From positions 243 through 32,242 of the forward strand of contig JBCBIE010000022.1 in NCBI GenBank assembly GCA_038524995.1: a stretch of 32,000 bases of DNA. Direction: 5' to 3'. Positions 854 to 18,619 of the stretch are shown here, piece after piece (position 1 is the stretch's first letter; the number at the start of each line of letters is the position of its first letter). A program made the translations under genes and the position numbers. Below the pieces are notes generated by a model that saw only the letters and a program-made list of their open reading frames with translations, made no database searches and was not told the DNA's origin. Source of the DNA: Cyanobacteria bacterium J06621_8. GTDB lineage: Bacteria; Cyanobacteriota; Cyanobacteriia; Cyanobacteriales; Xenococcaceae.

Positions 854-3800
854 TCATTGACAAAGCTGTTGCTCACTTTCCTTAACGTTGGGATTAGTAG
901 CTAAATAATCAGACAGGCGATCGCATCCTTTCTCGATCAAATTATCTAAATCTAAATTCCAAGAGAATAAACCCTGCTGTTCTTCCCCGCTAATAATCGA
1001 TTGATTATTACTGCTAAATGCCAAGGTGTTGATTTGACTGGTGTGTCCCCGTAAATTTTTAATTAACTCCCCTGTTGGAGTATGCCAAATTTTGATCGTG
1101 CGATCGCCGCTTCCTGTAGCCAACATTGAGCCATCGTTATTAAAGCTAAGGGTAGTTACGCCGTCTTGATGTGCTGTCAAAGTATGCAGTAAATCGCTGC
1201 TTTTACCTGAATTATTAATTGACCACAGCTTAACTGAATTATCCCAACTAGCAGAAGCCAAAATATTGCTATCGGGGGTAAACGCTAGGGTAGTAATTGC
1301 TAAATCATGAGCATCAATTGTTTGTAATAATTGACCCTGAAGATCCCAGATTTTAATTGTATTATCGTAGCTACCTGAAGCAATTAATTTACCATCAGGA
1401 CTGATAGTTATGGTTTTGATACTATCAGTATGTTCTTCAAGGGTAGCAACTACTTGAGGCTGGTTATTAAGATTCCAGACCTTAATCGTTTTATCTTCAC
1501 TAGCAGAAATTAAAGTCTGACCATCGGGAGTAAAAGTAATGCTGTTAACTCCACCATGATGTTTTTGAAGAGTGCTGATTAACTGACCTGACGCCGCATC
1601 CCAAAGCTTAATGGTTTTATCCCAGCTAGCGGTGGCGATCAATTTACCATCAGGACTATATTTAATTTGGGAAATATTATCCTCGTGTGCCTGCCAAGAA
1701 TTAACTACTTTTTGTGTCCCATCAGCATTGGTTTGCCATAGATTAACTTTGCCATGCCAATCAGCAGCAGCATAATTATCGTTGGCACTGGGTGCTACGG
1801 CAATGCTATAGATTCCTGTTGCTTCTTGATAGCGGTTAAAAACTTGCCAAATCCTAGCGGTTTTATCGACTCCCGTGGAGATTAACCGATAGCGATCGCC
1901 CGTATCCTGGGATGGCATAAACTTAAGATCAGTAACTTCTCCCACATGACCATTTAAGGTTTGTTGGAGAATACCGTCCTGATTCCAGATGTGGATCTTG
2001 CCGTCAACGGTGGCAGTGGCTAGTAATTTTTCATCGGTACTCAGGCTAAAATTACTGACTGATTCTGGATGTTCGTAAGACATCAGCACTTGATCAGCGG
2101 AATTTAGCTGAATTAGGCGATCATTATCGGGGGCGATAGCATAAGTGCCCTTTGCATTAGAGAGAGCGTGCTCTGGTGATTTTAATCCAGGATTACTAAT
2201 TTGCTGTTGATTAGCATTAACTTTGATAGCGATAGGATCGCTTTGCGCCTCTTCCTGAGTCAGAGTTTTTAATAAAGTCCCGTCTTGCTGCCAAACTTTT
2301 ACCGTGCCGTCATCACTAGAGGTAGCAAATAGCTGTCCATCGTCACTAATGCTTGCAAGATTAACCCGCTGGCTGTGTCCCTGAAGCCGATTTAATTCCT
2401 GAGTACCATAAAGGGACTGTTGCAGGGTAGCAGTAGCCTGGTATTTAGTTTTGTGCCATAAATCTCCACCGACTAATAATTTACCTAAGCCATTGATTTT
2501 CTCTAGCTGCTTACCTGCGGTAACGCTGGTGGTTAAAGACTCTAGCTGCTGATTGGATAATAGCTGGGCTTCAGAGACGGCGGATAAATTGGCAATATTT
2601 TCCACTTTAGTGATTACCTGCTGACGGTATGCCCCGACGCCAAATGCCGTAGCCGCCAGTCCCAACACCCCTAAAGCAGTGGCAGTTAATTGAGCTTTCC
2701 TTAGCCGTTGTTTCGCGGCTTTTTCTGCTGCCAGACGAGCATCGATACAGCAGGATACAAACTCCTTGGCAGTATCCGATAGCTCATCGTTATAGTTAGT
2801 AAAGATTTCTTCCGCTTCCCCCAGACGTACTCCCCGTAAAAGAAAGTCATCCTGCTGATCCTGGTGTTGCCAAAGCACTGCCGCCTGTTCAATTTGCCGT
2901 TGCGATCGCAAACGGGAACGATTTTCTTCTAGCCACCAGCGCAGACTTGACCAGTGACGGATTAGAATTTCATGAACTACTTCAACCGTCGCTTCCTGGC
3001 GCATTGCCTCCAGGAATAATTCGTCGTCTTCATCAGGTTCACTGGCGCTGCGACTCTGCCCAATACTATTACCGTTATCGAGGTTAATTACCAACAGCTT
3101 GGCATCGGTCAACACTCGTAATGTTTGGTTAACCAAAGGGGCAGGATATTTCGCGACGATTAAATCAGATTTAGTTACCCGACGACGAGTATCTTCGGTA
3201 CCCTCCCCTAATTGAGTTAAATTAAGGAAAATCCAGCGGGCACAGTCTTGGGATTGAGTATCCAGATTTTCATAGACTGCCTGAGCTTGTCTTTCTAAAG
3301 CCCCCTTAATTCCCCCCAGTTCTTGATAGGCATTGAGGGTTAATTTACCCTGCTGACGACGCTCCCAAAGCTGCTGTAGAGCAAACTGTAACAAGGGCAG
3401 ATCACCAGCAGAACGGTCTAAATCTTGTAATAAGATTTCCACTAACCCAGGTTCAACTGATAATCCCACCTGAACGGCAGGCTTAACAATAGCACTGCGA
3501 TAATCCGCTTCTGTGAGATAGGGCGGCACTAGAACGCTATTTTGCTGGAGAATTCGGGCTAATTCAGGGGTTTCTAAACAAGCAGCGACAAAATCAGCTC
3601 TAATAGTTAGCACCAGCTTAAAGCGATCGCCCGCATATTTTAGAGCACCGAGAATTAACTCCATAAATTCTCGTCGTTCACTTTCCCCAGCTAGGGTAAA
3701 TAGCTCCTCAAACTGGTCAATGACCAAAACCAGCATCTCTTCGGTACGGGTGCGTAACCAGCGGACAAAACCCTCTACTCCTTGATAAAGTAAACCCTCA

Positions 3801-5737
3801 AGCTGTAGCTGTTCCTGCGCCTGTTCTTTCTGACCTTGGTTGCTGGTTAATAATTTAGCCAAAGCCTGGATCGGATTCTTTCCTGGGCGAAAACAGCCCA
3901 ACCACCAGCGATCGCTACCAGGAATCTGCTTTCCCTGCCTCAGCTTGGCTAGTAATCCCGCCTGCACCGCTGAAGATTTACCGCTACCAGAAGCCCCCAC
4001 CACCGCAAGACTGCTTTGATGAGAAAGCTGATTGAGCAACTTTTGCACCAACGCTTCACGACCATAAAAATATGCCGCGCTATCTTCGTTAAATGCCTGC
4101 AACCCCATGTAGGGACAGATTCCCAGATCTAATACGGGTTGCCGACTCTTACTAACGCCATTCCTAATCGTTAGCAGTTCAATCACCCCTTGAGTTCCCG
4201 ATAACCAGACCTGGGGCTTAATTTTACTTCCTGCTAATGCAACCTGTAGCTGGCTGATCCAGGCTGCGATGGGCAATCCTACTTCTGAATGATCATTTTG
4301 TAGGGTTTGTAATACAGTATCGGCAAACTGCTGTGGATTATCCTGAGGGGAACTAGCGGCGATTAAACATTGCCCCCGATCTGTTGCTAGCTGTAAATCT
4401 TCAATCCATTCCCCTAGATTATCTTCCCCAAGGCAGTCTAAAATTACAATCTGTTGATTAGCCTGAGATTGCCGCAAAATTTTTCTCAGCCACGAGCGGG
4501 ATAGATAAATATTGTCCTGCAATAGTAGCCAAGATTCTCCAGTATCACTGGTTTCTAGCTTACCCCTTAGATAAAGTAAAGCTGTACTGATGTTAGTTTC
4601 TGCTGGCTGCGTCTGAAGACAATCGGCGATCGCCTCTTGGACTTTTGACCAAGGCTCATTAGTCTGGGGAAAATATCTTAAATTAAAGTTACCTGCATTT
4701 TGTAGGATCTGACTTAGGGCAAGAGTAGTACTATTGGCTTTAAATCCTCCATCCACTATCAATGCCTGACGGGGACTAGTTTCCAGCTTATCCTCAGCCC
4801 GTTTCCCCAGGATAACTTTACCAAAGCCTTCTACAATTCGCTTGGGAGTCTGGAGAGGGAATTCCGACTGAAGCTTATTTTCTCCCCGACTACTTTTTTG
4901 CTGATTAATCAGGCGGATTTGCTGATTGGTTTTATCAATATAGCGAAGAGTTTGATGATAGACATATTGATAAAGGGCATCCGCCTCAATTACTCCTTGG
5001 GTATCTGCTGCTTCTCCCCTCAAGCCCCGCATCAGGTAATAGGTGAATACTCCATGTCCCAATTCAGGAAATTCCCACGACTGCTGAGTTTGATCGCAGG
5101 ATAACAGAGCATAAAAACCCTTACTTTCCGCCGCCTGATGCCGCAATACTTCCACCAGTTGCGAACTAGGATCTGCCAGGGAATTCCCCGTCCCCCGTAA
5201 AGTCATCCCGCCGCTATGGCAGGCATCTAGCCAAACAAGCTGTTGACTAGCCGCACAGTTACTTAACTGTGCCAACAAATTATTTAAAGGTAGTCCTGTA
5301 GCGATTAAATCTTCCGTTTGGGTATCCGCCAAACACAATACTACCTGTTGCGTCTTAGTTTCTAAAATCCCGTGTCCTGAAAAGTAAAACAGGATCGTAT
5401 CCTTGACCTTAGCAGAACTCAAAATATGCTGAATACTCTTTTGTACCGCTGCTAATTGGGGGGCAGAATCAACAAAATCATGATGAATAATCACCTCTTT
5501 ATTCTCAAAGCTAGCAGTAGCTTCCGTTAAGGCTTCTCCCAACCCCTGACAATCCACCGCTGAATACTGCAACGACGATAGATGATGGCGATCATGATAC
5601 TGATTGACTCCCACCAGCAAGATCCAAAGTTTGGCAGGTTCAATAGTAGTTTGGGGTTTGGTACGAATTTTAGCGCGGGGACACATCGCTGATGCTAGGT
5701 GGTGGTTAAAGGTCAGTATATCTTTATAGGTTTGCAC
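854..5737 (-). CDS. Multidomain STAND protein: caspase-like C14 peptidase, degenerate second caspase-like domain, P-loop NTPase, hydrophobic segment, about 10 WD40 repeats
   Basis: Caspase His/Cys dyad motifs are FYFSGHG (His codon about 5392-5394) and WLDACHSGG (Cys codon 5220-5222). The pre-P-loop motif CPYMGLQAFNEDSAAYFYGRE is followed by Walker A GASGSGKSS and Walker B VLVIDQFEELF. A hydrophobic stretch LTATALGVLGLAATAFGVGAY lies at about 2625-2690. It is followed by repeated GH..(D/S)G..(A/S)S.D.T(I/V)K(I/L/V)W WD40 units down to the C-terminus. Confidence 0.85.
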   Translation of the reverse strand: MQTYKDILTFNHHLASAMCPRAKIRTKPQTTIEPAKLWILLVGVNQYHDRHHLSSLQYSAVDCQGLGEALTEATASFENKEVIIHHDFVDSAPQLAAVQKSIQHILSSAKVKDTILFYFSGHGILETKTQQVVLCLADTQTEDLIATGLPLNNLLAQLSNCAASQQLVWLDACHSGGMTLRGTGNSLADPSSQLVEVLRHQAAESKGFYALLSCDQTQQSWEFPELGHGVFTYYLMRGLRGEAADTQGVIEADALYQYVYHQTLRYIDKTNQQIRLINQQKSSRGENKLQSEFPLQTPKRIVEGFGKVILGKRAEDKLETSPRQALIVDGGFKANSTTLALSQILQNAGNFNLRYFPQTNEPWSKVQEAIADCLQTQPAETNISTALLYLRGKLETSDTGESWLLLQDNIYLSRSWLRKILRQSQANQQIVILDCLGEDNLGEWIEDLQLATDRGQCLIAASSPQDNPQQFADTVLQTLQNDHSEVGLPIAAWISQLQVALAGSKIKPQVWLSGTQGVIELLTIRNGVSKSRQPVLDLGICPYMGLQAFNEDSAAYFYGREALVQKLLNQLSHQSSLAVVGASGSGKSSAVQAGLLAKLRQGKQIPGSDRWWLGCFRPGKNPIQALAKLLTSNQGQKEQAQEQLQLEGLLYQGVEGFVRWLRTRTEEMLVLVIDQFEELFTLAGESERREFMELILGALKYAGDRFKLVLTIRADFVAACLETPELARILQQNSVLVPPYLTEADYRSAIVKPAVQVGLSVEPGLVEILLQDLDRSAGDLPLLQFALQQLWERRQQGKLTLNAYQELGGIKGALERQAQAVYENLDTQSQDCARWIFLNLTQLGEGTEDTRRRVTKSDLIVAKYPAPLVNQTLRVLTDAKLLVINLDNGNSIGQSRSASEPDEDDELFLEAMRQEATVEVVHEILIRHWSSLRWWLEENRSRLRSQRQIEQAAVLWQHQDQQDDFLLRGVRLGEAEEIFTNYNDELSDTAKEFVSCCIDARLAAEKAAKQRLRKAQLTATALGVLGLAATAFGVGAYRQQVITKVENIANLSAVSEAQLLSNQQLESLTTSVTAGKQLEKINGLGKLLVGGDLWHKTKYQATATLQQSLYGTQELNRLQGHSQRVNLASISDDGQLFATSSDDGTVKVWQQDGTLLKTLTQEEAQSDPIAIKVNANQQQISNPGLKSPEHALSNAKGTYAIAPDNDRLIQLNSADQVLMSYEHPESVSNFSLSTDEKLLATATVDGKIHIWNQDGILQQTLNGHVGEVTDLKFMPSQDTGDRYRLISTGVDKTARIWQVFNRYQEATGIYSIAVAPSANDNYAAADWHGKVNLWQTNADGTQKVVNSWQAHEDNISQIKYSPDGKLIATASWDKTIKLWDAASGQLISTLQKHHGGVNSITFTPDGQTLISASEDKTIKVWNLNNQPQVVATLEEHTDSIKTITISPDGKLIASGSYDNTIKIWDLQGQLLQTIDAHDLAITTLAFTPDSNILASASWDNSVKLWSINNSGKSSDLLHTLTAHQDGVTTLSFNNDGSMLATGSGDRTIKIWHTPTGELIKNLRGHTSQINTLAFSSNNQSIISGEEQQGLFSWNLDLDNLIEKGCDRLSDYLATNPNVKESEQQLCQ

Positions 5738-6185: not shown

Positions 6186-8981
6186 ATGTCGGATAAATCT
6201 GGGATCAAGGTTGAAAATCGTCGTTCTCTTCTGCAAAAAGAACTCAAGGTAGATTTTAAATCTCTGTTATTGACTTTGGGCAAAAGTGCCGTCAACATCG
6301 GTTTTTTGCAGTTTGATGATCTGGCTGAGAATGGTGTTGAGCTTCTAGAGTCTTTGGGGTTAGAGACGAAAGCGGAAGAAATTGCTGGTTTATTAATAGT
6401 GCGATCGCTTAAACAGGCTATCATCAATCTTAACGAGGAATATATTGAGTCTTTTCGCCCAGAACAGATAGAAAATATCCCAGCCAGCCTCAAGGATTTT
6501 TCTATCACCTTAAGTGATGCTATCGGTGAGGGTGAGTTAACTATTGATAGTGACTTTTTCGCTCATCCAGAACAGTTAGCCCTTGTCTCGGATATTAAAT
6601 TAGCTTACGGTGATTGGTTACAAGATTTTGTTAACCGCCCTGTTGATGCAGAAAAGGTTAGCAGTAGCTTTCCTGCCTATTTTGTCGAGGCGCTTAATGA
6701 GGAATGGTTAAGCCGCAGCGATGAATATGCGGTATTGAGGGAAACCCTCGATACTCCCTTTACTCAGGCTAATAAGAGACAACAGCAATGGTTACGTTAT
6801 CGAGCATGGCTGCAAAAGCAAATTGAAGAACCCATGTTTGCTGAAGCTTTTAGCTTGAATGAGATTTACGTACCGTTAAGAGCTTATTATGAGCGAAAAA
6901 ATCAGGAAAAAGAAAATGAATCAGTTGACGGAACATTAGATTTACATAGAGAGTATCAAAGAGTAGCGGTAAGACTTGATCAAGCCCTCCAGTCATGGCT
7001 GGATAAAAATAATCGCGATGATGCGATTCGCTTGATCACTGGTAGCCCAGGAAGCGGAAAGTCTTCCTCCTGCAAGATATTTGCCGCCGAACAAGCAAGA
7101 AAAAGAGATATTAATACCTTATTTATTCCTCTGCATAAATTTAGTCATGGGGAGGATTTAGTAAAAGCGATCAATGAATTTGCTCAAACTGACTGTTTTC
7201 TCTCTGGTAATTTAATCGCCAGAGATAACGAAGATTTACGGTTATTAATTATCTTTGATGGCTTGGATGAGCTATCAATGCAGGGCAAAATTGCCGAAAA
7301 TGCCGCTAAAGACTTTGTGGAAGCAGTAAAATTTCTAGTCTCGCAGTTTAATACCCATAAAACTCGACTACAGGTAATTATTAGCGGGCGGGAAGTCGTA
7401 GTACAGGCTAACCGTAACCAACGTCAACTCCATCAGCTACTTTATTTATTACCCTACGTGTTGTCTGATAGTGAATACAACATCAAGAAGTATGTTGATG
7501 AGGCAAATATTCTGAAATCAGATCAACGACAAACCTGGTGGCAAAATTACGGCAGGGCTAAAGGGAAAGAATACGATGGTTTACCGCCAGCGTTAGATCA
7601 AGATAACTTAGTGGAAATCACCACCCAACCCCTGCTTAACTACCTGATTGCCCTGAGTTACGAACGAGAGAAAATAGAGTTTACTGCGGATACTAATCTG
7701 AATGAGATTTATGCGGATTTGTTAGAGGCAGTTTATGACAGAAAGTATGAAAAACATGGTTATTTACCCCTAGAAAATATTGAACTAGAGCAATTTATCG
7801 GGATTTTAGAGGAAATTGCCCTATCTTGCTGGCATGGCAACGGCAGAACTACCACCATCAAGGAAATTAAGTCTCACTGCGACAACAGCGGTTTGGGACA
7901 GGTTTTAAAGGAATTTCAGGCTAGTTTTGAGCAAGATTCTAAAGGCTGCATCACTCGCTTACTTGCCGCATTTTATTTCCGAGAAAGTGGAGGGCTGCGA
8001 GATAGGGATAAAACCTTTGAATTTACCCACAAGAGTTTTCGCGAATATCTTACCGCCAAGCGCATTATTGAGGAAGTCAAAAATATCCATGAAGAGTTAG
8101 CAGCCAGAAGCAAGAACTTCCGCAAGGGGATTAATGAAACCGAGGCTTTAGTTCGCTGGGCTAAACTATGTGGACTTTCGGCGATGGATGAATATCTGTT
8201 TAGTTTTGTTTGGGACGAAATTGAATTGGAATATGCCCAAGATCCTCAATTAATTAAAGACTGGCAAAAAATGCTTTGTCATTTGATTGAGGTGATGTTA
8301 GTCAACGGTATGCCCATGGAGAGTATCGAACCTCGTCCCAATTTCCAGTCGGAAATGTTCCAGTCTCGCAACGCCGAAGAGTCATTACTAGCGGTATTAA
8401 ACGCCTGCGCTAGAATTACTAGGGAAATTTCTCATATTAAATGGCATTCTCCTACAGCTTTTGGTTCTTGGATTGCTCGATTACAGCCACAGAGAGAAGC
8501 ACCGAAAAATACTCTAGCATTTAGCTGTTTAAGCTGGCTGAATCTCGATAATTGTATGCTTGACTTGAGAGATTTTTATGCAGCTAATTTTGAATATAGC
8601 TCTTTAGTCAAATCAGATCTACAGGTAGCAGTTTTATTAAATGCTAATCTTGCGCGGGCTAATCTTGCGCGGGCTAATCTTGCAGGGGCTCGTCTTGCGC
8701 GGGCTAATCTTGTAGGGGCTCATCTTGCAGGGGCTCATCTTGCGCGGGCTCATCTTGCAGGGGCTCATCTTGCAGGGGCTCATCTTGAGGCGGTTGATCT
8801 TGCGCGGGCTGATCTTGAGGGGGCTAATCTTGAGGGAGCTAATCTTGAGGGGGCTAATCTTCAGAGAGCTAATCTTAATGGGGCTATTCTTCAAGGAGCT
8901 AATCTTAATGGGGCTATTCTTAAGAATACAATTCTAGAAGGTCAAGATATTGCTAAAATCACTGGCGTTAAAAATGAATAA
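6186..8981 (+). CDS. NACHT-type STAND NTPase with C-terminal pentapeptide-repeat domain and an unassigned N-terminal module
   Basis: Walker A is ITGSPGSGKSS and the NACHT-style Walker B is LLIIFDGLDEL. The C-terminus is a run of A(N/H/D)L(A/E)(R/G) pentapeptides (ANLARANLARANLAGARLARANLVGAHLAGAHL...). ATG start at 6186. Confidence 0.85.
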   Translation: MSDKSGIKVENRRSLLQKELKVDFKSLLLTLGKSAVNIGFLQFDDLAENGVELLESLGLETKAEEIAGLLIVRSLKQAIINLNEEYIESFRPEQIENIPASLKDFSITLSDAIGEGELTIDSDFFAHPEQLALVSDIKLAYGDWLQDFVNRPVDAEKVSSSFPAYFVEALNEEWLSRSDEYAVLRETLDTPFTQANKRQQQWLRYRAWLQKQIEEPMFAEAFSLNEIYVPLRAYYERKNQEKENESVDGTLDLHREYQRVAVRLDQALQSWLDKNNRDDAIRLITGSPGSGKSSSCKIFAAEQARKRDINTLFIPLHKFSHGEDLVKAINEFAQTDCFLSGNLIARDNEDLRLLIIFDGLDELSMQGKIAENAAKDFVEAVKFLVSQFNTHKTRLQVIISGREVVVQANRNQRQLHQLLYLLPYVLSDSEYNIKKYVDEANILKSDQRQTWWQNYGRAKGKEYDGLPPALDQDNLVEITTQPLLNYLIALSYEREKIEFTADTNLNEIYADLLEAVYDRKYEKHGYLPLENIELEQFIGILEEIALSCWHGNGRTTTIKEIKSHCDNSGLGQVLKEFQASFEQDSKGCITRLLAAFYFRESGGLRDRDKTFEFTHKSFREYLTAKRIIEEVKNIHEELAARSKNFRKGINETEALVRWAKLCGLSAMDEYLFSFVWDEIELEYAQDPQLIKDWQKMLCHLIEVMLVNGMPMESIEPRPNFQSEMFQSRNAEESLLAVLNACARITREISHIKWHSPTAFGSWIARLQPQREAPKNTLAFSCLSWLNLDNCMLDLRDFYAANFEYSSLVKSDLQVAVLLNANLARANLARANLAGARLARANLVGAHLAGAHLARAHLAGAHLAGAHLEAVDLARADLEGANLEGANLEGANLQRANLNGAILQGANLNGAILKNTILEGQDIAKITGVKNE
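8643..8927 (+). repeat. In-frame tandem repeat, 19 units of 15 bp (consensus GCTAATCTTGCGCGG), encoding the pentapeptide-repeat domain
   Basis: Read directly. Units start at 8643, 8658, 8673 and so on to 8913. Several neighbouring units are identical or differ by 1-3 nt, including at third codon positions. Confidence 0.9.
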
Positions 8982-12357: not shown

Positions 12358-14124
12358 TTAATCTAAAGGCTGCATTAACCCCATTAATTTCCGCTTGCGA
12401 CCATGAACTTCCACGAGCTTGGCTCGATAGTCCGACCATTCTTGAGGGCGATTCGCTGTTAAATATGCCTGACGTACTCGTCTGAGCCAGGAGATAGCTG
12501 ACTCATAATATTTTGCCTTTCCCTCATTCATAATTGCTTCTGCTCTGGGAGTAGCGTTGTTGATCACCCAATCAGGATTAGTCTCCATTGACGCATCCAT
12601 CACTCTTTGAATCAGACGATGCCGATAGTCACCCACATTTTCTACTACTGCGATCGCCTGTTTAATCATCCCCTCATCCAGATGAATGTCTACTTTAGCG
12701 GCTGCTGAATTCCAACTATCATCCGCTGCTAACGTCCCCAGTAGTTCCCCCTTCAGATTTGACCAATTATCACCCGCTAGCTGCGCCACTTGACGATAAT
12801 CTGCAAAATTGGGACTGGCTTGAAAAGCTTTGACCTTAGCCTTAACTGCCGTAACCTGGTCATCCAATTCCAGGGCAATTTCGCTCGTCCAGGTAGCCAA
12901 ATCATATTGACAACTTCCAGGTAATCCTAACCCTGCTCTGGCGATCGCCAGAGCTTCAACTTGAGCATTTTGTTCAGTTACTAAGCATCTAGATAATGCC
13001 AGCGCATCCTCCTTATTAGCTAGTAAAGACTGCGCCGCCGTCATCGCTTCGCTGATCCTTCCCAAACTTACTAACTTAGTCAAATATTCAACTACCTGTC
13101 CCGATGCTTCGGCAAAATAAAGATATTCCTCCAGCCGTCCTTGCCGTTCTAAAATATCAAGTCTGATTGCCGCTAAATCCTCAGCATAGGGTGGTGCTTC
13201 TCCTGTCCAGATATTAGAACTCACATTACCCTGAAGTATCCGCTTGAGAGCAGGATTTGACCAACCTTGTTCCAAAGCCGCCAATAAGATGTCAAAACAA
13301 TTCCCCCAGCTATCACGCCAGTACTCAAAATTAACCTGGAGATCTACCTTGTCCGCCTCATCAAGTTTTCCATTAAGAATCGTCTCGCACCAGACACGAC
13401 TCAATAGATAAGCGACATCATCATAATCAACGCCATACTCATCAACTAAATCCCAGTTTTCCAAGCAGGATTCAGTAATAGCAGTTAACATGGCGATCGC
13501 ATTATCAGAATCACCCTGTTGGTTATAGTTACTAGCCTCCTCGATCAGGCTACAAATCTCTTCCGTCGCTGGATCTTCTTCCCCTCCGTATTCATAATGA
13601 CGCACCGAGTCTTCCAGAATATATCTGACTTGGGATCTGATGGCGTTAACATTGACGGTAACTTTTTTCTGGGGTGAACTGCCTTCGGTGGTAACTACTA
13701 CAGGGGGTGCTAGGCGATCTGTAATTCTCTCAATATCATTAACCAGTTCAGGCTTTTTAGCTGCTAACTGCTGAATGAGACTTTGAGTTTGGATTTCGTT
13801 AAGACGATCTAGAATCTCCTCTAAAGTAGCGCGCACTTGAATATGCTCAGGTTCTCGCAAACAAAATAGCAGAGTAGCAACGATATGTTTACAGTAACCA
13901 CCCCAGTCATAAGGACAAGTACAGCTAGCCGTGAGGATGTCATGATCAGCAAACTCAATACTGACAGAATAAAGACTGCTCCCAATAACTTCGGCGCTGA
14001 TTAAATTGCCTCGCTGATTAACCTGTCTTACACAACCTTGGTCGTAATATGATTCTCCCCGTTGCCAAGACTTATGAGTAGCGGATTGACGAATCAGTTC
14101 GAGAGTAAGCTGGGTAATCGACAT
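12358..14124 (-). CDS. SWIM zinc-finger domain protein with long helical C-terminal region
   Basis: SWIM CxC...CxH motif ASCTCPYDWGGYCKHIVATLL near the N-terminus. The rest is unassigned. Confidence 0.7.
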   Translation of the reverse strand: MSITQLTLELIRQSATHKSWQRGESYYDQGCVRQVNQRGNLISAEVIGSSLYSVSIEFADHDILTASCTCPYDWGGYCKHIVATLLFCLREPEHIQVRATLEEILDRLNEIQTQSLIQQLAAKKPELVNDIERITDRLAPPVVVTTEGSSPQKKVTVNVNAIRSQVRYILEDSVRHYEYGGEEDPATEEICSLIEEASNYNQQGDSDNAIAMLTAITESCLENWDLVDEYGVDYDDVAYLLSRVWCETILNGKLDEADKVDLQVNFEYWRDSWGNCFDILLAALEQGWSNPALKRILQGNVSSNIWTGEAPPYAEDLAAIRLDILERQGRLEEYLYFAEASGQVVEYLTKLVSLGRISEAMTAAQSLLANKEDALALSRCLVTEQNAQVEALAIARAGLGLPGSCQYDLATWTSEIALELDDQVTAVKAKVKAFQASPNFADYRQVAQLAGDNWSNLKGELLGTLAADDSWNSAAAKVDIHLDEGMIKQAIAVVENVGDYRHRLIQRVMDASMETNPDWVINNATPRAEAIMNEGKAKYYESAISWLRRVRQAYLTANRPQEWSDYRAKLVEVHGRKRKLMGLMQPLD

Positions 14125-14351: not shown

Positions 14352-14855
14352 TCACAAACTACGGTTAATTGCTTCAATAAAATCGGCTTCAATAGTCAAA
14401 GGACTTTCAGCTATCCCCCGATTAACAAAAGTAACCAAATCCTTTGCAACCAACTTCGGCAAACAAATACTATCCGCAACTTCCTGATAGCCAGCATCCT
14501 CCAAGCGATAAAAAGTAAGCTGGTTATTCTGCCAAAACCAAACCTCTGGCACGCCTAAAATGCAGTACTTCTCTAAATCTTCTATGCCACCACTGGAAAA
14601 AATAACCTCAATTGTCAGATCGGGAATATCTTTATCTGTATTAAAAGCATAGGATACATCAGGCTCTTTACCAACTAGAGGGTTCTTCTTCAGCGTAGTA
14701 GAGCCACGAGGAAAGTATGTGAGTTTAAACTGACGACAATAAGCAGCAATCAAAATTGGGAAGATTTGAGCAATTTTTTCATGGTTAACACTGGGAGACA
14801 TCAGAGTAATAACTCCATTGAGGAAAGACGTTAGAGGATATCTGAAAAGTCTCAA
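14352..14855 (-). pseudogene. 5'-truncated duplicate of the Uma2-family gene at 18014-18619
   Basis: The encoded residues from NGVITLMSPS to EAINRS are identical to the full-length copy. The N-terminal ~55 residues of the full copy are replaced by 11 unrelated codons (MRLFRYPLTSF) after a TTG. Confidence 0.8.
14362..14835. repeat. Left copy of a 474-bp direct repeat
   Basis: 14362-14816 is identical base for base to 18021-18475 (455 bp). Three mismatches follow in the next 19 bp, then the sequences diverge completely. There is frayed partial identity for about 12 bp beyond the other end. Confidence 0.9.
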
Positions 14856-14999
14856 TTGCTACTTTATAGCCAATCCTATCCAACGGAATCATAATAGTTT
14901 CAACATTGTTATCTAGGTCTGAAATCTGATTTAGAGGTGACAAAATTTACTTTTCAGATGACCTCTCAGAATTCATCTAGTTCAAAAAATAACTCTCTG

Positions 15000-15089
15000 A
15001 TGCCTAAGCTGCCAGCCTTTAGAGCCAAACAACTAATCTCTGTGCTTGAAAAAATTGGTATTGAGATAGTATCGCGATCTCTACTATGA
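15000..15089 (+). pseudogene. hicA: HicA/YcfA-like toxin gene fragment (N-terminal ~27 residues only)
   Basis: MPKLPAFRAKQLISVLEKIGIEIVSRS matches the characteristic HicA-family N-terminus (MPKLP..(K/R)..I..LEK.GF..V). The conserved downstream GSH region is absent and a stop follows after 29 codons. An in-frame ATG at 14958 could extend it. Confidence 0.55.
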
Positions 15090-15214
15090 ATTAATTGGAT
15101 GTGTAAAGAATTACAAAATATCATTACAAAAATACTAGCCCAAGTGTTGAAGACACAAGATTAGATAGAATCAAATTACTTAAGCTATGTTTTAAACAAA
15201 TCTAGTCTAAAGCT

Positions 15215-15670
15215 ATGGTGGACTTCTTTATAAGCTATAATTCAGCAGACAAAGATTGGGCGGAATGGATTGCATTCATACTGGAAGAGAATCAGTATAC
15301 TACTGTGATCCAAGTTTGGGATTTTAGACCTGGCTCTAATTTTGCACTAGAAATGCAGAAAGCAGCTTCAGATGCAAACAAAACAATTATTGTTTTATCA
15401 AATAATTATCTTAAATCTAGGTATACTCAGCCCGAATGGGCAGCAGCTTTTGCAGACGATCCCACAGGGAATCAAAGAAAGTTAATTCCAGTAAAAGTAG
15501 AAGAATGCAGCCCCAATGGATTGTTAGATAAAATTGTTCACATTAATATTGCTCATCTAGATTCTAAGGAAGCAGAGAAAGCTCTACTTAGTGGTCTAAA
15601 AGAAGATGTAAGACCTAAAACAAAAGTTAAGTTTCCTGGAAAAAAAAAGTCTGTGATAAAAAGTGCTTAG
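15215..15670 (+). CDS. TIR-domain protein (151 aa in the zero frame)
   Basis: Bacterial TIR hallmarks are present: FFISYNSADKDWAEWIAFILE, IIVLSNNYLKSRYTQPEWAAAF, with a candidate catalytic Glu in QPEW (residue 74). The zero-frame stop TAG is at 15668-15670. Confidence 0.85.
   Translation: MVDFFISYNSADKDWAEWIAFILEENQYTTVIQVWDFRPGSNFALEMQKAASDANKTIIVLSNNYLKSRYTQPEWAAAFADDPTGNQRKLIPVKVEECSPNGLLDKIVHINIAHLDSKEAEKALLSGLKEDVRPKTKVKFPGKKKSVIKSA
15640..15649 (+). promoter_or_regulatory. A9 homopolymer containing an in-phase A_AAA_AAG heptamer (candidate -1 frameshift / transcriptional slippage / phase-variation site)
   Basis: Zero-frame codons are GGA AAA AAA AAG TCT. The heptamer at 15643-15649 is in the X_XXY_YYZ phase. 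The -1 frame (GTC at 15649) is open from 15631 and runs into the NB-ARC ORF. Confidence 0.6.
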
Positions 15671-15720
15671 AGAATTTAAAGCACAAAAATTGCGAAGTCT
15701 TAATTGGTAGACAAAATGAA

Positions 15721-17673
15721 TTGAAATTGCTACTTAAAAGAATTTCTCCCAGCTATACTTTACATATGAATGAGGTAGTTGGAGTTGGCGGTTTGGGTAA
15801 AACAGCTCTGGTATTAGAAGTAGCATACCTATGTAAAAAAGCAAAAGAAGAAGGACTTGAGCAGCTAAATGGACTCAATATCCCCATTTTTGATGCTATT
15901 ATTTTTAGCTCTGCAAAGACAAAAAAACTAGAATCAAGAGGGATTGTAGAGATATCTTCAGAAGCCAGAGATAAATGTTTGCAAGATATATTTCGCACTA
16001 TTGCCGCTACTTTAGATACTCCAATCATTAATCAGGCTACTGCATCAAATCAGCTATCTCAAGTTTATAAATGTTTGGATAATCAACAAACTTTGTTGAT
16101 TATTGATAATATGGAGACCTTAGAAAGGAGTGAAAAAGAGCGAGTTTATGAATTTTTAGGTGATGTGCCTCCAACTACACAAGTAGTCATAACTACTAGG
16201 GAAAAAATTGGCTATCTCTCTATTACTTTAGATGAGCTGTCAAAAGAAGATAGTCTAGAGCTAATTAAGCAAGAAGCTTCTCTTAAAAATATCAATATAT
16301 CGTTTACAGAAGCTACTAAACTGTATAAAAGATTTAAAGGAATTCCTTTAGCATTAAAATATACTATAGGAAAAAAGGCTTCTGGTAGGAGTGTAAACTT
16401 TGACGCTCCATTAGATGATAATATTGCTCAGTTTTGCTTTGAAGACTCATTATCATCTATTAGGGGTAACTACTCTTATAAACTGTTAATGGCTTTAGCA
16501 ATTTTTCCTGGCGATCCTTTAAAAGATTTTTTAGTTGAGGTTGCTGGCTTATCCTCTATCGACCCTGATAAAATTAGCAAAGAATTAGATGAGCTTAAAG
16601 TATTGAATTTAGTTAGTGAATATGATGGAAGGTATCATCTACTAACTATGACCAAAGAGTATACAAGAATAGAGATAGGTAAGAATCAAGAGTTTGAAGA
16701 TATAGCTAGAGAAAGACTTGTTAACCGTTATATTTTATTTACTCAAAAACATGGTGGCTTAGATTGGGAGGAATGGTACGAAGATTCTAAGCAAATCCGA
16801 AATGAATTAGAGAATATAAAGGGAATACTTGACTGGTGTGCTGTAAAAAATCGCTATGAAGATGTTAAAGCAATCTGGAAAAATATAAGTAATTATATAG
16901 ATTTATTAGGTGACTGGCAACTTTGTCTTTATTGGACTGACTGGCTAATTCAAAAATCAATTAAGCGTTCTGAACTAGATACATATATTAGTTTATTAGC
17001 TAGCAAAGCCTGGATTCAAATTTTGATGGGAGGTGAAACAATTCATGATGCCAGAAATCTTTTAATGACTGCTTGGAAGTTAAAGAGTCACTCCAGTGAT
17101 TTGACAAAAACTGAATTAGCTAAAAACTTAGCATTTTTAGACTTAAACCATAAACATCACTATAGGCAATCTATTAGATGGTTAAATCATGCAGAGGGTT
17201 TTTTGAAGCTTACAAAACTTGCCAAAAAAGAGTATAAACGATATGAAATATTGTTTGCATATTATCGCGGTAGGGTGGAGTATTTTCAAAAGAACTTTGA
17301 AATAGCAAAAGAACATTTTGAGCAAGTTATCAAACTTGGAGAAGAAATCAAATGGCAACGTTATTCTAATTATGCTAAACATAGGCTTGGAGACGTAGCC
17401 TTGGAATTAGGTCATTTAGAAATAGCAAGGCAACTTTTAGAAACTGCTTATATTATCGCTAAAAATAACTCAGAGCCTAGAAGGGTATTTTTATGTTTAA
17501 TATCCAAAGCAAAACTAGAAAAAAAATCTGGAAATCTTGAAAAAGCTTGTAAATTAGAAGCTGAAGCTAAACTTCTTAAAGCTAATAATCCTGTCAGTAC
17601 TAGGGATGAAGAAGATTTTAAATTATTACATGATGATTTAGCTTGTGATTTTAGACAATTTGAAACTGTCTAA
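15721..17673 (+). CDS. NB-ARC (AP-ATPase clade) STAND NTPase with C-terminal TPR-like repeats. It has no credible start of its own.
   Basis: P-loop GVGGLGKTAL, Walker B LLIIDNME, VVITTRE, and GLPL-type FKGIPLALKY. The C-terminal ~300 aa is helical and TPR-like. The frame is open from 15631 and already encodes conserved pre-P-loop sequence (VLIGRQNELKLLLKRI). The only start-like codon before the P-loop is the TTG at 15721. The first ATG (15766) lies 5 codons before the P-loop. Confidence 0.8.
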   Translation: MKLLLKRISPSYTLHMNEVVGVGGLGKTALVLEVAYLCKKAKEEGLEQLNGLNIPIFDAIIFSSAKTKKLESRGIVEISSEARDKCLQDIFRTIAATLDTPIINQATASNQLSQVYKCLDNQQTLLIIDNMETLERSEKERVYEFLGDVPPTTQVVITTREKIGYLSITLDELSKEDSLELIKQEASLKNINISFTEATKLYKRFKGIPLALKYTIGKKASGRSVNFDAPLDDNIAQFCFEDSLSSIRGNYSYKLLMALAIFPGDPLKDFLVEVAGLSSIDPDKISKELDELKVLNLVSEYDGRYHLLTMTKEYTRIEIGKNQEFEDIARERLVNRYILFTQKHGGLDWEEWYEDSKQIRNELENIKGILDWCAVKNRYEDVKAIWKNISNYIDLLGDWQLCLYWTDWLIQKSIKRSELDTYISLLASKAWIQILMGGETIHDARNLLMTAWKLKSHSSDLTKTELAKNLAFLDLNHKHHYRQSIRWLNHAEGFLKLTKLAKKEYKRYEILFAYYRGRVEYFQKNFEIAKEHFEQVIKLGEEIKWQRYSNYAKHRLGDVALELGHLEIARQLLETAYIIAKNNSEPRRVFLCLISKAKLEKKSGNLEKACKLEAEAKLLKANNPVSTRDEEDFKLLHDDLACDFRQFETV

Positions 17674-17883
17674 ATGATGATTGAGTTTACGTGAAGCGTA
17701 GAGAAGCACAGCTCTTAAATCATCTATTTCTAAATTGGGAAGCTCCTCCAAAATCTGCTCGGAACTTAACTCTGCTGCAAACAGATCTAGAACATCAGAT
17801 ACTCGAATCCTCATCCCGCGAATACATGGACGACCACCACATTGTCTGGGGTTTACTGTAATTCGTTCAAGTAGCTTTGACAT
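17638..17883 (-). CDS. DUF433-domain protein (antitoxin-like), with no partner toxin gene
   Basis: ITVNPRQCGGRPCIRGMRIRVSDVLDLFAAELSSEQILEELPNLEIDDLRAVLLYA is a typical DUF433 core. Its last 36 nt overlap the 3' end of the convergent NB-ARC ORF. Confidence 0.75.
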   Translation of the reverse strand: MSKLLERITVNPRQCGGRPCIRGMRIRVSDVLDLFAAELSSEQILEELPNLEIDDLRAVLLYASRKLNHHLDSFKLSKITS

Positions 17884-18013
17884 TTGTAGAAAGCTCCATT
17901 ATAGGTTCTTAATCCTTCTGACTAGGCATATAGTCACACTTCATATTATCCCAAACAGACGAGTTACAAAATAGAAGATGTTCCCTCTTAAAACTACCTC
18001 TGAGACAAAATTA

Positions 18014-18619
18014 CTAACTGCGGTTAATTGCTTCAATAAAATCGGCTTCAATAGTCAAAGGACTTTCAGCTATCCCCCGATTAACAAAAGTAACCAAATC
18101 CTTTGCAACCAACTTCGGCAAACAAATACTATCCGCAACTTCCTGATAGCCAGCATCCTCCAAGCGATAAAAAGTAAGCTGGTTATTCTGCCAAAACCAA
18201 ACCTCTGGCACGCCTAAAATGCAGTACTTCTCTAAATCTTCTATGCCACCACTGGAAAAAATAACCTCAATTGTCAGATCGGGAATATCTTTATCTGTAT
18301 TAAAAGCATAGGATACATCAGGCTCTTTACCAACTAGAGGGTTCTTCTTCAGCGTAGTAGAGCCACGAGGAAAGTATGTGAGTTTAAACTGACGACAATA
18401 AGCAGCAATCAAAATTGGGAAGATTTGAGCAATTTTTTCATGGTTAACACTGGGAGACATCAGAGTAATAACTCCGTTGAAGAAAGACGCTAGATAGCCT
18501 GGATATTCATCAGAAAGTAATTGTTCGTAATCAGCCCAATCCATACCAGCTAAACGAAGCGTCTGATCTTGCTGATTTAGGCGATCGCTATTTATCGGGA
18601 GGTTGGCATTGATTAACAT
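18014..18619 (-). CDS. Uma2-family (DUF820) putative endonuclease, full length
   Basis: 201-aa ORF with an ATG start. A HIP1 site lies in the unique 5' part (about 18585-18592). The 3' 474 bp are duplicated at 14362-14835. Confidence 0.85.
   Translation of the reverse strand: MLINANLPINSDRLNQQDQTLRLAGMDWADYEQLLSDEYPGYLASFFNGVITLMSPSVNHEKIAQIFPILIAAYCRQFKLTYFPRGSTTLKKNPLVGKEPDVSYAFNTDKDIPDLTIEVIFSSGGIEDLEKYCILGVPEVWFWQNNQLTFYRLEDAGYQEVADSICLPKLVAKDLVTFVNRGIAESPLTIEADFIEAINRS
18021..18494. repeat. Right copy of the 474-bp direct repeat
   Basis: See the left copy. Same orientation, offset 3659 bp. Confidence 0.9.

Follow-up and report, generated by a model that had tools for sequence, protein, structure and literature searches.

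The window analysed here, a stretch of 32,000 nucleotides (positions 243 to 32,242 of contig JBCBIE010000022.1, assembly GCA_038524995.1) from the metagenome-assembled genome (MAG) Cyanobacteria bacterium J06621_8, contains a gene that, judged from its sequence, is a TIR-NB-ARC-TPR gene, a known cyanobacterial NLR-like STAND architecture. As sequenced, its TIR and NOD-TPR modules are not in one frame, but occupy frames 0 and −1 and meet at a run of nine adenines (A9). This arrangement is probably a recent loss-of-function or attenuated allele, produced by an A10-to-A9 change, from which incidental slippage probably still gives a little full-length protein. The gene would have lost one base in the poly-A stretch that specifies the lysine codons of its inter-domain linker; A10 to A9 is the likeliest change, and the alternative, loss of the G from GGA-GAA-AAA-AAA, would leave the same sequence. 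At the DNA level, the result would be a frameshift allele that is OFF or strongly attenuated. Both annotated proteins belong to the same MAG and lie on an 80,484-bp contig, where the locus has the following layout (window coordinates).

15215–15670, forward strand: zero-frame TIR open reading frame (ORF), NCBI MEL6439989.1, 151 aa, with the TIR domain at residues 4–120, the FPG linker motif, a 6-codon out-of-frame tail (SVIKSA) and a TAG stop.

15631–15667, forward strand: the sole interval in which both frames are open, 37 nt, bounded by the −1-frame TAA at 15628–15630 and the zero-frame TAG at 15668–15670.

15640–15648, forward strand: the A9 homopolymer (GG-A9-GTC), lysine run of the TIR/NB-ARC linker and presumed site of the 1-nt deficit.

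15649–17673, forward strand: −1-frame continuation, with an N-terminal NOD segment (CLENL...LIGRQNEL..LL..IS), an NB-ARC/AAA_16 P-loop NTPase and a TPR (MalT-like) C-terminal region, intact to its stop.

15766–17673, forward strand: NCBI-annotated NB-ARC coding sequence, MEL6439990.1, 635 aa, with an ATG start five codons ahead of Walker A.

15781–15804, forward strand: Walker A motif (P-loop) GVGGLGKT, the invariant G190–T197 of the orthologue alignment.

The 3' part of the TIR ORF reads ...TTT CCT GGA AAA AAA AAG TCT..., and its zero-frame C-terminus, ...FPGKKKSVIKSA, ends at the TAG of 15668–15670. The −1 frame is open from 15631 to 17673 and reads VCDKKCLENL...GVGGLGKT, so that an earlier reading of the letters alone (hereafter the original prediction), which had described both the TIR ORF with its stop and a −1 frame open from 15631 and coding up to the P-loop, is borne out. 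The frame change needed to make a fusion must fall within 15631–15667, because only there are both frames open. In silico, a single ORF is restored by A10 (819 aa) or by A7 (818 aa), in agreement with the predicted restoration by either length and with the predicted products of about 819 aa for the fusion and 151 aa for the free TIR; the trans-frame junction peptide of the fusion is ...VKFPGKKK/VCDK..., with the frame change at the slash. The 32-kb window holds no second run of nine, and the A9 at 15640–15648 is hence unique at that length.

In Pfam, the first ORF matches TIR_2 with an E-value of 1.7e-32 (112.9 bits against a cutoff of 28), and it also matches TIR chains in the PDB; the (Q/H)PEWA motif is invariant across the TIR clade, and its Glu is the putative catalytic residue. 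The second ORF matches NB-ARC (29.7 bits, cutoff 23.5), AAA_16, from nt ~15700 onwards, and TPR, and the motifs GVGGLGKT (Walker A) and LLIIDNME (Walker B) are invariant among orthologues. In the C-terminal region, TPR_2 reaches 27.3 bits (cutoff 27), TPR_MalT (25.3) and TPR_12 (23.2) both fall under their cutoffs, and the region is collinear in the fusion with orthologues annotated as TPR proteins. The PADLOC models for Avs and bNACHT gave no match, only its TIR models doing so; NCBIfam and PADLOC returned no specific family for the NOD-TPR part, and a PDB sequence search with that part matched no solved structure. The same tripartite plan of effector, P-loop NOD and TPR sensor has been described for NB-ARC-TPR NLR-like STAND proteins of filamentous cyanobacteria, whose N-terminal effector domains are swappable (Dyrka et al., 2020, 10.1101/2020.01.06.895854). 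The bNACHT/Avs systems (10.1101/2022.07.19.500537) are also alike in tripartite plan, whereas the window gene, known from its sequence, is interrupted and matches no Avs or bNACHT model. In more distant homologues, the TIR is replaced by trypsin-like, HTH, SEFIR, caspase-like or PNP domains, and 79 such NB-ARC-TPR loci begin to match the fusion at residues ~146–154; the A-run therefore sits exactly at the boundary between the effector and NOD modules.

Evidence for a frameshifted gene comes from its uninterrupted orthologues. If the frame is shifted once by −1 within the run, which is equivalent to A10, the resulting virtual fusion (819 aa) aligns end to end with the uninterrupted proteins P0001 (818 aa, 63% identity), P0002 (818 aa, 60%), P0005/P0130 and P0003/P0004 (843–844 aa, 48%), the last pair carrying a 28-aa insertion in the linker. 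Together with P0123, described below, these make up the uninterrupted set, and intact TIR-NB-ARC-TPR orthologues range from 818 to 844 aa. The junction itself is gapless in the codon alignment (FPG-KKK-VCDKKC-LENL against FPG-GEK-IGEKKC-LQNL), and no second stop or indel was found over the 819 codons aligned with the orthologues. None of the fused orthologues read as DNA (L002, L170, L003, L004 and L165–L167) has a long A-run at the homologous codons, P0004 being fused at the protein level; orthologue codons at the site are GGA GGA GAA AGA ATT, GGA GGT GAA AAA ATT, GGT CAA AAA ATA TTT and GGA GAG GGA TCC TTT, and the position and length of the tract vary. What distinguishes the window gene from its intact orthologues is thus a single disabling indel, with neither further lesions nor relaxed constraint detected, the nearest orthologue being 63% identical (saturated) and the near-identical contigs free of differences. 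Because no other stop or indel occurs across the 819 codons, the lesion is either recent or tolerated.

The key comparison is with a second split gene. In a sister lineage, the protein P0006, ~53% identical to the fusion and encoded on locus L001, is split into a TIR ORF and an NB-ARC-TPR ORF that again need a −1 step. The split occurs at an in-phase A7 (GC A_AAA_AAA C) ~20 codons upstream of FPG, a site different from that of the window. P0123, an uninterrupted protein of 837 aa in the same 90% protein cluster as P0006, is encoded on L165, L166 and L167, and all four loci share their neighbours, with HicB upstream and an FHA-AAA gene downstream. L001 is 99.85% identical in DNA to the other three, from which it differs by four substitutions and by A7 instead of A8 at the split site. 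A further allele, L168 (ENA ERZ893895 k147_2994747, positions 1149–2695), stems from the same metagenome sample as L001 and is 94% identical; it keeps A8, and has suffered a 970-nt out-of-frame deletion spanning the A-rich linker to the middle of the NOD. In this sister lineage, the nearest one open to examination, the two-ORF state is hence a very recent derived loss of one nucleotide in a poly-A tract, and it co-occurs with an irreversible deletion allele and with a majority of intact alleles. The A7/A8 pair shows that the signature of a slippery heptamer followed by a −1 ORF arises by simple mutation, and the series of A7 split, A8 intact and 970-nt deletion alleles that loss-of-function alleles of this gene segregate in nature. 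The description of the window locus as a frameshifted TIR-NLR, one of the options in the original prediction, is accordingly supported, both by gapless collinearity with uninterrupted orthologues and by the same type of lesion in the sister lineage. Of the four substitutions that separate the A7 allele from the A8 allele, three lie within ~45 nt of the run (L001 against L165, gene positions ~339–398), and the diverged allele L168 has at least one of them as well; this clustering suggests a small patch of recombination or gene conversion, or strain mixing in the assembly.

These alleles also bear on the wider history of the family: at very short divergence, intact, frameshifted and deleted forms of TIR-NLR genes coexist in marine and filamentous cyanobacteria, as would fit a rapid turnover of immune genes that are costly to keep. 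If the window gene is a mere frameshift allele, the combination of an in-phase slippery heptamer and an open −1 frame is what any 1-nt deletion in a poly-A tract leaves behind and should not be taken for recoding, and the two proteins annotated at NCBI (a 151-aa TIR and a 635-aa NB-ARC protein) probably do not make up the functional unit.

The same features had been read in the original prediction as possible programmed recoding, in which a −1 frameshift on A_AAA_AAG, or realignment on A9, would set a fixed ratio of free TIR to TIR-NLR; in the version weighed here, both products would be needed, as for dnaX, IS3 orfAB or tssM1. An in-phase A_AAA_AAG and an A9 run are indeed present, the former at 15643–15649 in the X_XXY_YYZ phase and accompanied by an A_AAA_AAA at 15640–15646, and the zero-frame stop follows 19 nt 3' of the heptamer. 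The predicted position and phase of the heptamer are therefore correct, but they carry no information: every A9 run holds exactly one in-phase A_AAA_AAA, and whatever follows a 1-nt deletion is always in the −1 frame, so that the phase, the −1 direction and the open −1 frame follow automatically from loss of one nucleotide from an A10 tract, or in any run of at least nine adenines. The run is itself expected from composition and codon usage alone, for the gene has 33% G+C and an AAA:AAG ratio of 67:16, and synonymous-codon shuffles of the restored gene contain a longest A-run of at least 9 in 64% of cases and of at least 10 in 20%.

The accessory signals of known frameshift sites were not detected either. 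Folding of 15650–15740 (91 nt) for a 3' stimulatory structure gave −11.7 kcal/mol, a value matched by 66 of 200 shuffles (z = −0.31), so that no hairpin or pseudoknot exceeds the shuffled background; the best stem 3' of the heptamer is 6 bp long and begins 13 nt from it, the spacing looked for being 5–9 nt, RNA folding produced no hairpin upstream of the run, and the 20 nt or less upstream of the heptamer contain no Shine-Dalgarno-like GGAG or AGGA. Moreover, neither the two-frame arrangement nor the shift site is conserved among homologues. The A9 does provide the run of at least nine A or T at the frame junction that is looked for in transcriptional slippage, but the conservation of the run that is looked for alongside it is likewise not seen. 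The other split relative, at a different site, has a 99.85%-identical intact sibling, and the free TIR of the window lacks the adaptor tail of the separately encoded TIRs found in metagenomes. A uniform set of fused orthologues with no homopolymer at the site had been named in the original prediction as part of the outcome that would make the locus a simple pseudogene, and this part is essentially what was found. Programmed recoding at a fixed ratio is hence regarded as highly improbable.

The E. coli dnaX gene and the IS3-family elements use an identical in-phase A_AAA_AAG for −1 frameshifting, but the window has no Shine-Dalgarno-like element, no stable 3' hairpin or pseudoknot and no phylogenetic conservation. 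Precedents for poly-A tracts that give two functional lengths do exist, as in the A11 of Citrobacter rodentium tssM1 (PMC4256274) and the A9 of Thermus dnaX (as cited in PMC1088944). In these genes, and in Shigella mxiE (as described in PMC1088944), a poly-A/T run precedes a premature stop and the long form needs an added base. The function of tssM1 depends on both forms and on the ratio between them, and frameshifting of tssM has also been reported in Yersinia pseudotuberculosis (PMC4256274). The window arrangement, on the other hand, is lineage-specific, and its orthologues are plain fusions.

A sequencing or assembly artefact, in which the true genome carries A10 and the gene is a plain fusion, was also considered. 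The sequence comes from a metagenome-assembled genome, homopolymers are places where errors typically occur, and a consensus may mask a mixed population, assemblies rather than reads having been examined. Two independent Logan assemblies nonetheless reproduce the run: a contig from SRR22824301 (L164) is an exact match to window positions 14871–15951, a contig from SRR22824287 (L169) is an exact match to 15555–16617 and ends in a TruSeq adapter, which identifies its data as Illumina, and both carry A9. Because two independent Illumina assemblies both give A9, assembly error is an unlikely source of the tract, which weighs against the possibility, raised with the original prediction, of an A10 read as A9. 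Elsewhere in the window, homopolymers of 7–8 nt occur within intact ORFs or in intergenic sequence, and single-base consensus errors at A9–A10 are uncommon in Illumina data, which also counts against an artefact. Only slight credence is therefore given to the idea that the true gene is uninterrupted.

Another possibility is a functional split, in which a free TIR and an independently started NB-ARC/TPR protein, beginning at TTG 15721 or ATG 15766, act as a two-protein system. NCBI annotates two separate proteins, and separately encoded TIR effectors beside partner genes do occur in metagenomes. The original prediction had found no ATG before the P-loop region and only the TTG at 15721; there is in fact an ATG at 15766–15768, in the context H-M-NEVVGVGGLGKT, which NCBI uses for MEL6439990.1, and a second TTG at 15727. 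Its further remark that the NB-ARC frame has no obvious Shine-Dalgarno sequence was correct, none preceding 15721 or 15766, and no promoter-like site was found in the ~100 nt between the ORFs, the region 14800–18000 being no richer in such sites than shuffled sequence; the same promoter and terminator scan found no terminator-like site. An independent start would remove 20–40 conserved N-terminal NOD residues (about 40 with ATG 15766): the invariant N154, L155, I164-G165-R166 and L170 lie upstream of both starts, and the ATG also loses L173, L174, I177 and S178. Furthermore, an N-terminal domain of 120–140 aa is in frame with the NLR in nearly all of the 79 homologues, and natural split TIRs bear a coiled-coil tail of ~90 aa that is mirrored in the partner, whereas the window TIR has only nine residues after FPG. 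Taken together, this makes a genuine two-protein system at the locus highly unlikely.

The separately encoded TIRs are of interest in their own right. Loci L109, L119, L131, L135 and L148 encode TIRs 57–61% identical to that of the window as separate proteins of ~230 aa, and in the three that were translated (L109, L119 and L131) the coiled-coil tail (…NAADxxDxERQLxxIAE…) recurs at the N-terminal end of the product of the next gene, which overlaps the first, encodes ~460 aa and has no NB-ARC. By sequence, these pairs look like effector/adaptor docking pairs. Seven loci examined as further splits (L109, L119, L127, L131, L135, L148 and L158) were rejected as such, being ordinary two-gene operons whose TIRs have tails of their own and whose partners are unrelated to NB-ARC-TPR.

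Under the favoured reading of a recent A10-to-A9 allele, standard decoding would produce a free 151-aa TIR without a docking tail and, at best, an N-terminally truncated NB-ARC/TPR protein in addition. Because the coiled-coil tail is missing, the free TIR would have no evident means of recruitment or oligomerisation. Some full-length protein is probably still made, because the lesion sits in an A9: the 819-aa protein could be rescued by RNA polymerase inserting an extra A, or by a −1 ribosomal slip on A_AAA_AAA/G. During transcription, single-base insertions are the prevailing event in A/T runs, and their frequency grows exponentially as the run lengthens (PMC5574713). C-AAA-AAA by itself has given 25–60% −1 frameshifting under overexpression in E. 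coli (PMC1851650), and oligo-A frameshifts undergo partial correction in chloroplasts (PMC8254509). We take such leakiness for a by-product of the sequence rather than a signal shaped by evolution. That the ancestor had A10, that rescue is leaky and how large it is, and that immune function is lost or weakened are what we infer from these data. The closest likenesses are disrupted ORFs with 9A or 9T that can be restored by transcriptional slippage (Baranov et al., 2005, PMC1088944), where the same 1-nt frameshift lies inside nine adenines and one added A in the mRNA restores the ORF, and the likewise similar ‘savior indel’ corrections (Atkins et al., 2016, PMC5009743). In contrast to those cases, the window gene is known from sequence alone and its host is a cyanobacterial MAG. 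A frameshift in a coding homopolymer, possibly leaky through slippage, is a known kind of event, to which the window adds an NLR-like immune gene.

Several observations weigh against this reading. A clean run of 819 codons fits a very recent mutation and, equally, a maintained functional arrangement. No close relative of the window lineage by which the lesion might be dated was found: a scan of contigs from one genome per species gave none (the best match, L004, being 48% identical), a metagenome scan returned many TIR-STAND loci, none of them near-identical to the window (the best match, L084, being the contig of L165), and tblastn against PLSDB plasmids yielded no orthologue. Neither the A10 (819-aa) nor the A7 (818-aa) product turned up on exact look-up in the protein collection, a weak negative in that only full-length exact products can be detected this way; the homology search with the fusion, moreover, did not return the window's own P0121, P0126 and P0127, which exact look-up places in the collection, so that near-identical alleles may be invisible to it. 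Heterogeneity between A9 and A10 at the level of reads is not visible in assemblies. As to leakiness, the RNA polymerase of E. coli is less prone to slip on A-runs than on T-runs (PMC6260861), and given such poor slippage rescue could be negligible. Lastly, splits are suggestively somewhat more frequent than expected in the TIR subclade, where two members in ~8 lineages are split; in each of them the split lies in the linker, at an A-run, and needs a −1 step. No frameshift inside the NLR body was seen in 80 NB-ARC-TPR loci from species-representative genomes (0/80), 79 of which are paralogues with other N-terminal domains and serve as a background rate only; after allowing for the window having been chosen as a split, the comparison becomes 1/7 against 0/79 (our own count, without a formal test).

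It is because of this excess, and of the absence of a second lesion in either split gene (window or L001), that phase variation is retained as a rival. The linker poly-A would then be a contingency locus, a selected reversible switch of a costly or autotoxic TIR-NLR, ON with A10 or A7 and OFF with A9 or A8, much as in restriction-modification or Pgl/BREX genes under homopolymer control. A9 tracts are prone to replication slippage (discussion of PMC1088944; PMC2831843), the sister lineage offers an intact A8 (three assemblies) beside a split A7 (one assembly) at 99.85% identity, and both splits fall in an inter-domain linker that tolerates changes in Lys-run length, as the 28-aa insertion of P0003/P0004 indicates. 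Against a switch, however, A9 is the sole length seen in the window lineage (the MAG and two runs), with no A10 or A7 product in the collection, and the tract is neither conserved as a tract in position and length among orthologues nor longer than codon usage predicts. A7 and A8 are short for a dedicated switch, and the irreversible 970-nt deletion allele in the sister population points to plain decay. The likeness to phase-variable defence genes (type I/III restriction-modification mod/hsdS) thus consists in a 1-nt change in a coding homopolymer and in the ON and OFF alleles of the sister lineage; the window lineage differs from them in showing no length polymorphism (A9 in the MAG and both runs) and a tract neither conserved nor enriched. 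The G-tract of pglX in the Streptomyces Pgl system is an example of a phase-variable defence gene under homopolymer control. On balance, we consider a selected switch unlikely, if the least so of the alternatives weighed here.

A more speculative proposal, also unlikely, would combine switching with leakiness. In it, the poly-A tracts coding for linker lysines in this TIR-NLR clade are a selected rheostat: a genomic change from A(n) to A(n−1) would place a potentially suicidal receptor on ‘standby’, slippage of a few per cent of transcripts or ribosomes would still yield full-length sensor, and the OFF state would readily revert, so that the population hedges autoimmunity against protection from phages. 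If true, it would be the first case of a bacterial NLR controlled by a homopolymer, and with either switching or regulated read-through, NLR-like STAND receptors would join the phase-variable or slippage-attenuated defence genes.

A perfect direct repeat of 455 bp flanks a cassette (14817–18020) made up of the TIR, NB-ARC-TPR and DUF433 ORFs, with 32–35% G+C against 42–47% in the flanks. The elements of this cassette and its immediate border are as follows.

14362–14816, reverse strand: left copy of the 455-bp repeat, a truncated duplicate of the 3' part of a Uma2 gene.

17638–17883, reverse strand: DUF433 gene (1.7e-22), convergent with the 3' end of the NB-ARC-TPR ORF, which it overlaps by 36 nt.

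18021–18475, reverse strand: right copy of the repeat, inside the full-length Uma2 gene (18014–18619).

In appearance, this repeat-bracketed cassette resembles foreign DNA that came in recently by a single crossover (Campbell-type insertion), or else a substrate for deletion by looping out. The Logan unitig L164 starts just past the left repeat. No partner toxin gene, such as a PIN-like one, is evident alongside the DUF433 gene, and the window contains no tRNA genes.

Three further genes of note in the window lie to the left of the cassette.

854–5737, reverse strand: STAND NTPase of 1626 aa with nSTAND1 and WD40 repeats.

6186–8981, forward strand: STAND NTPase of 931 aa with NNH3, a P-loop and pentapeptide repeats.

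12358–14124, reverse strand: SWIM zinc-finger protein of 588 aa, matching the PADLOC candidate defence family PDC-S62 (3.7e-23) and, weakly, DpdE.

The two additional STAND genes are interspersed with housekeeping genes for an ammonium transporter, a GDPD protein, ferrochelatase and aconitase B.

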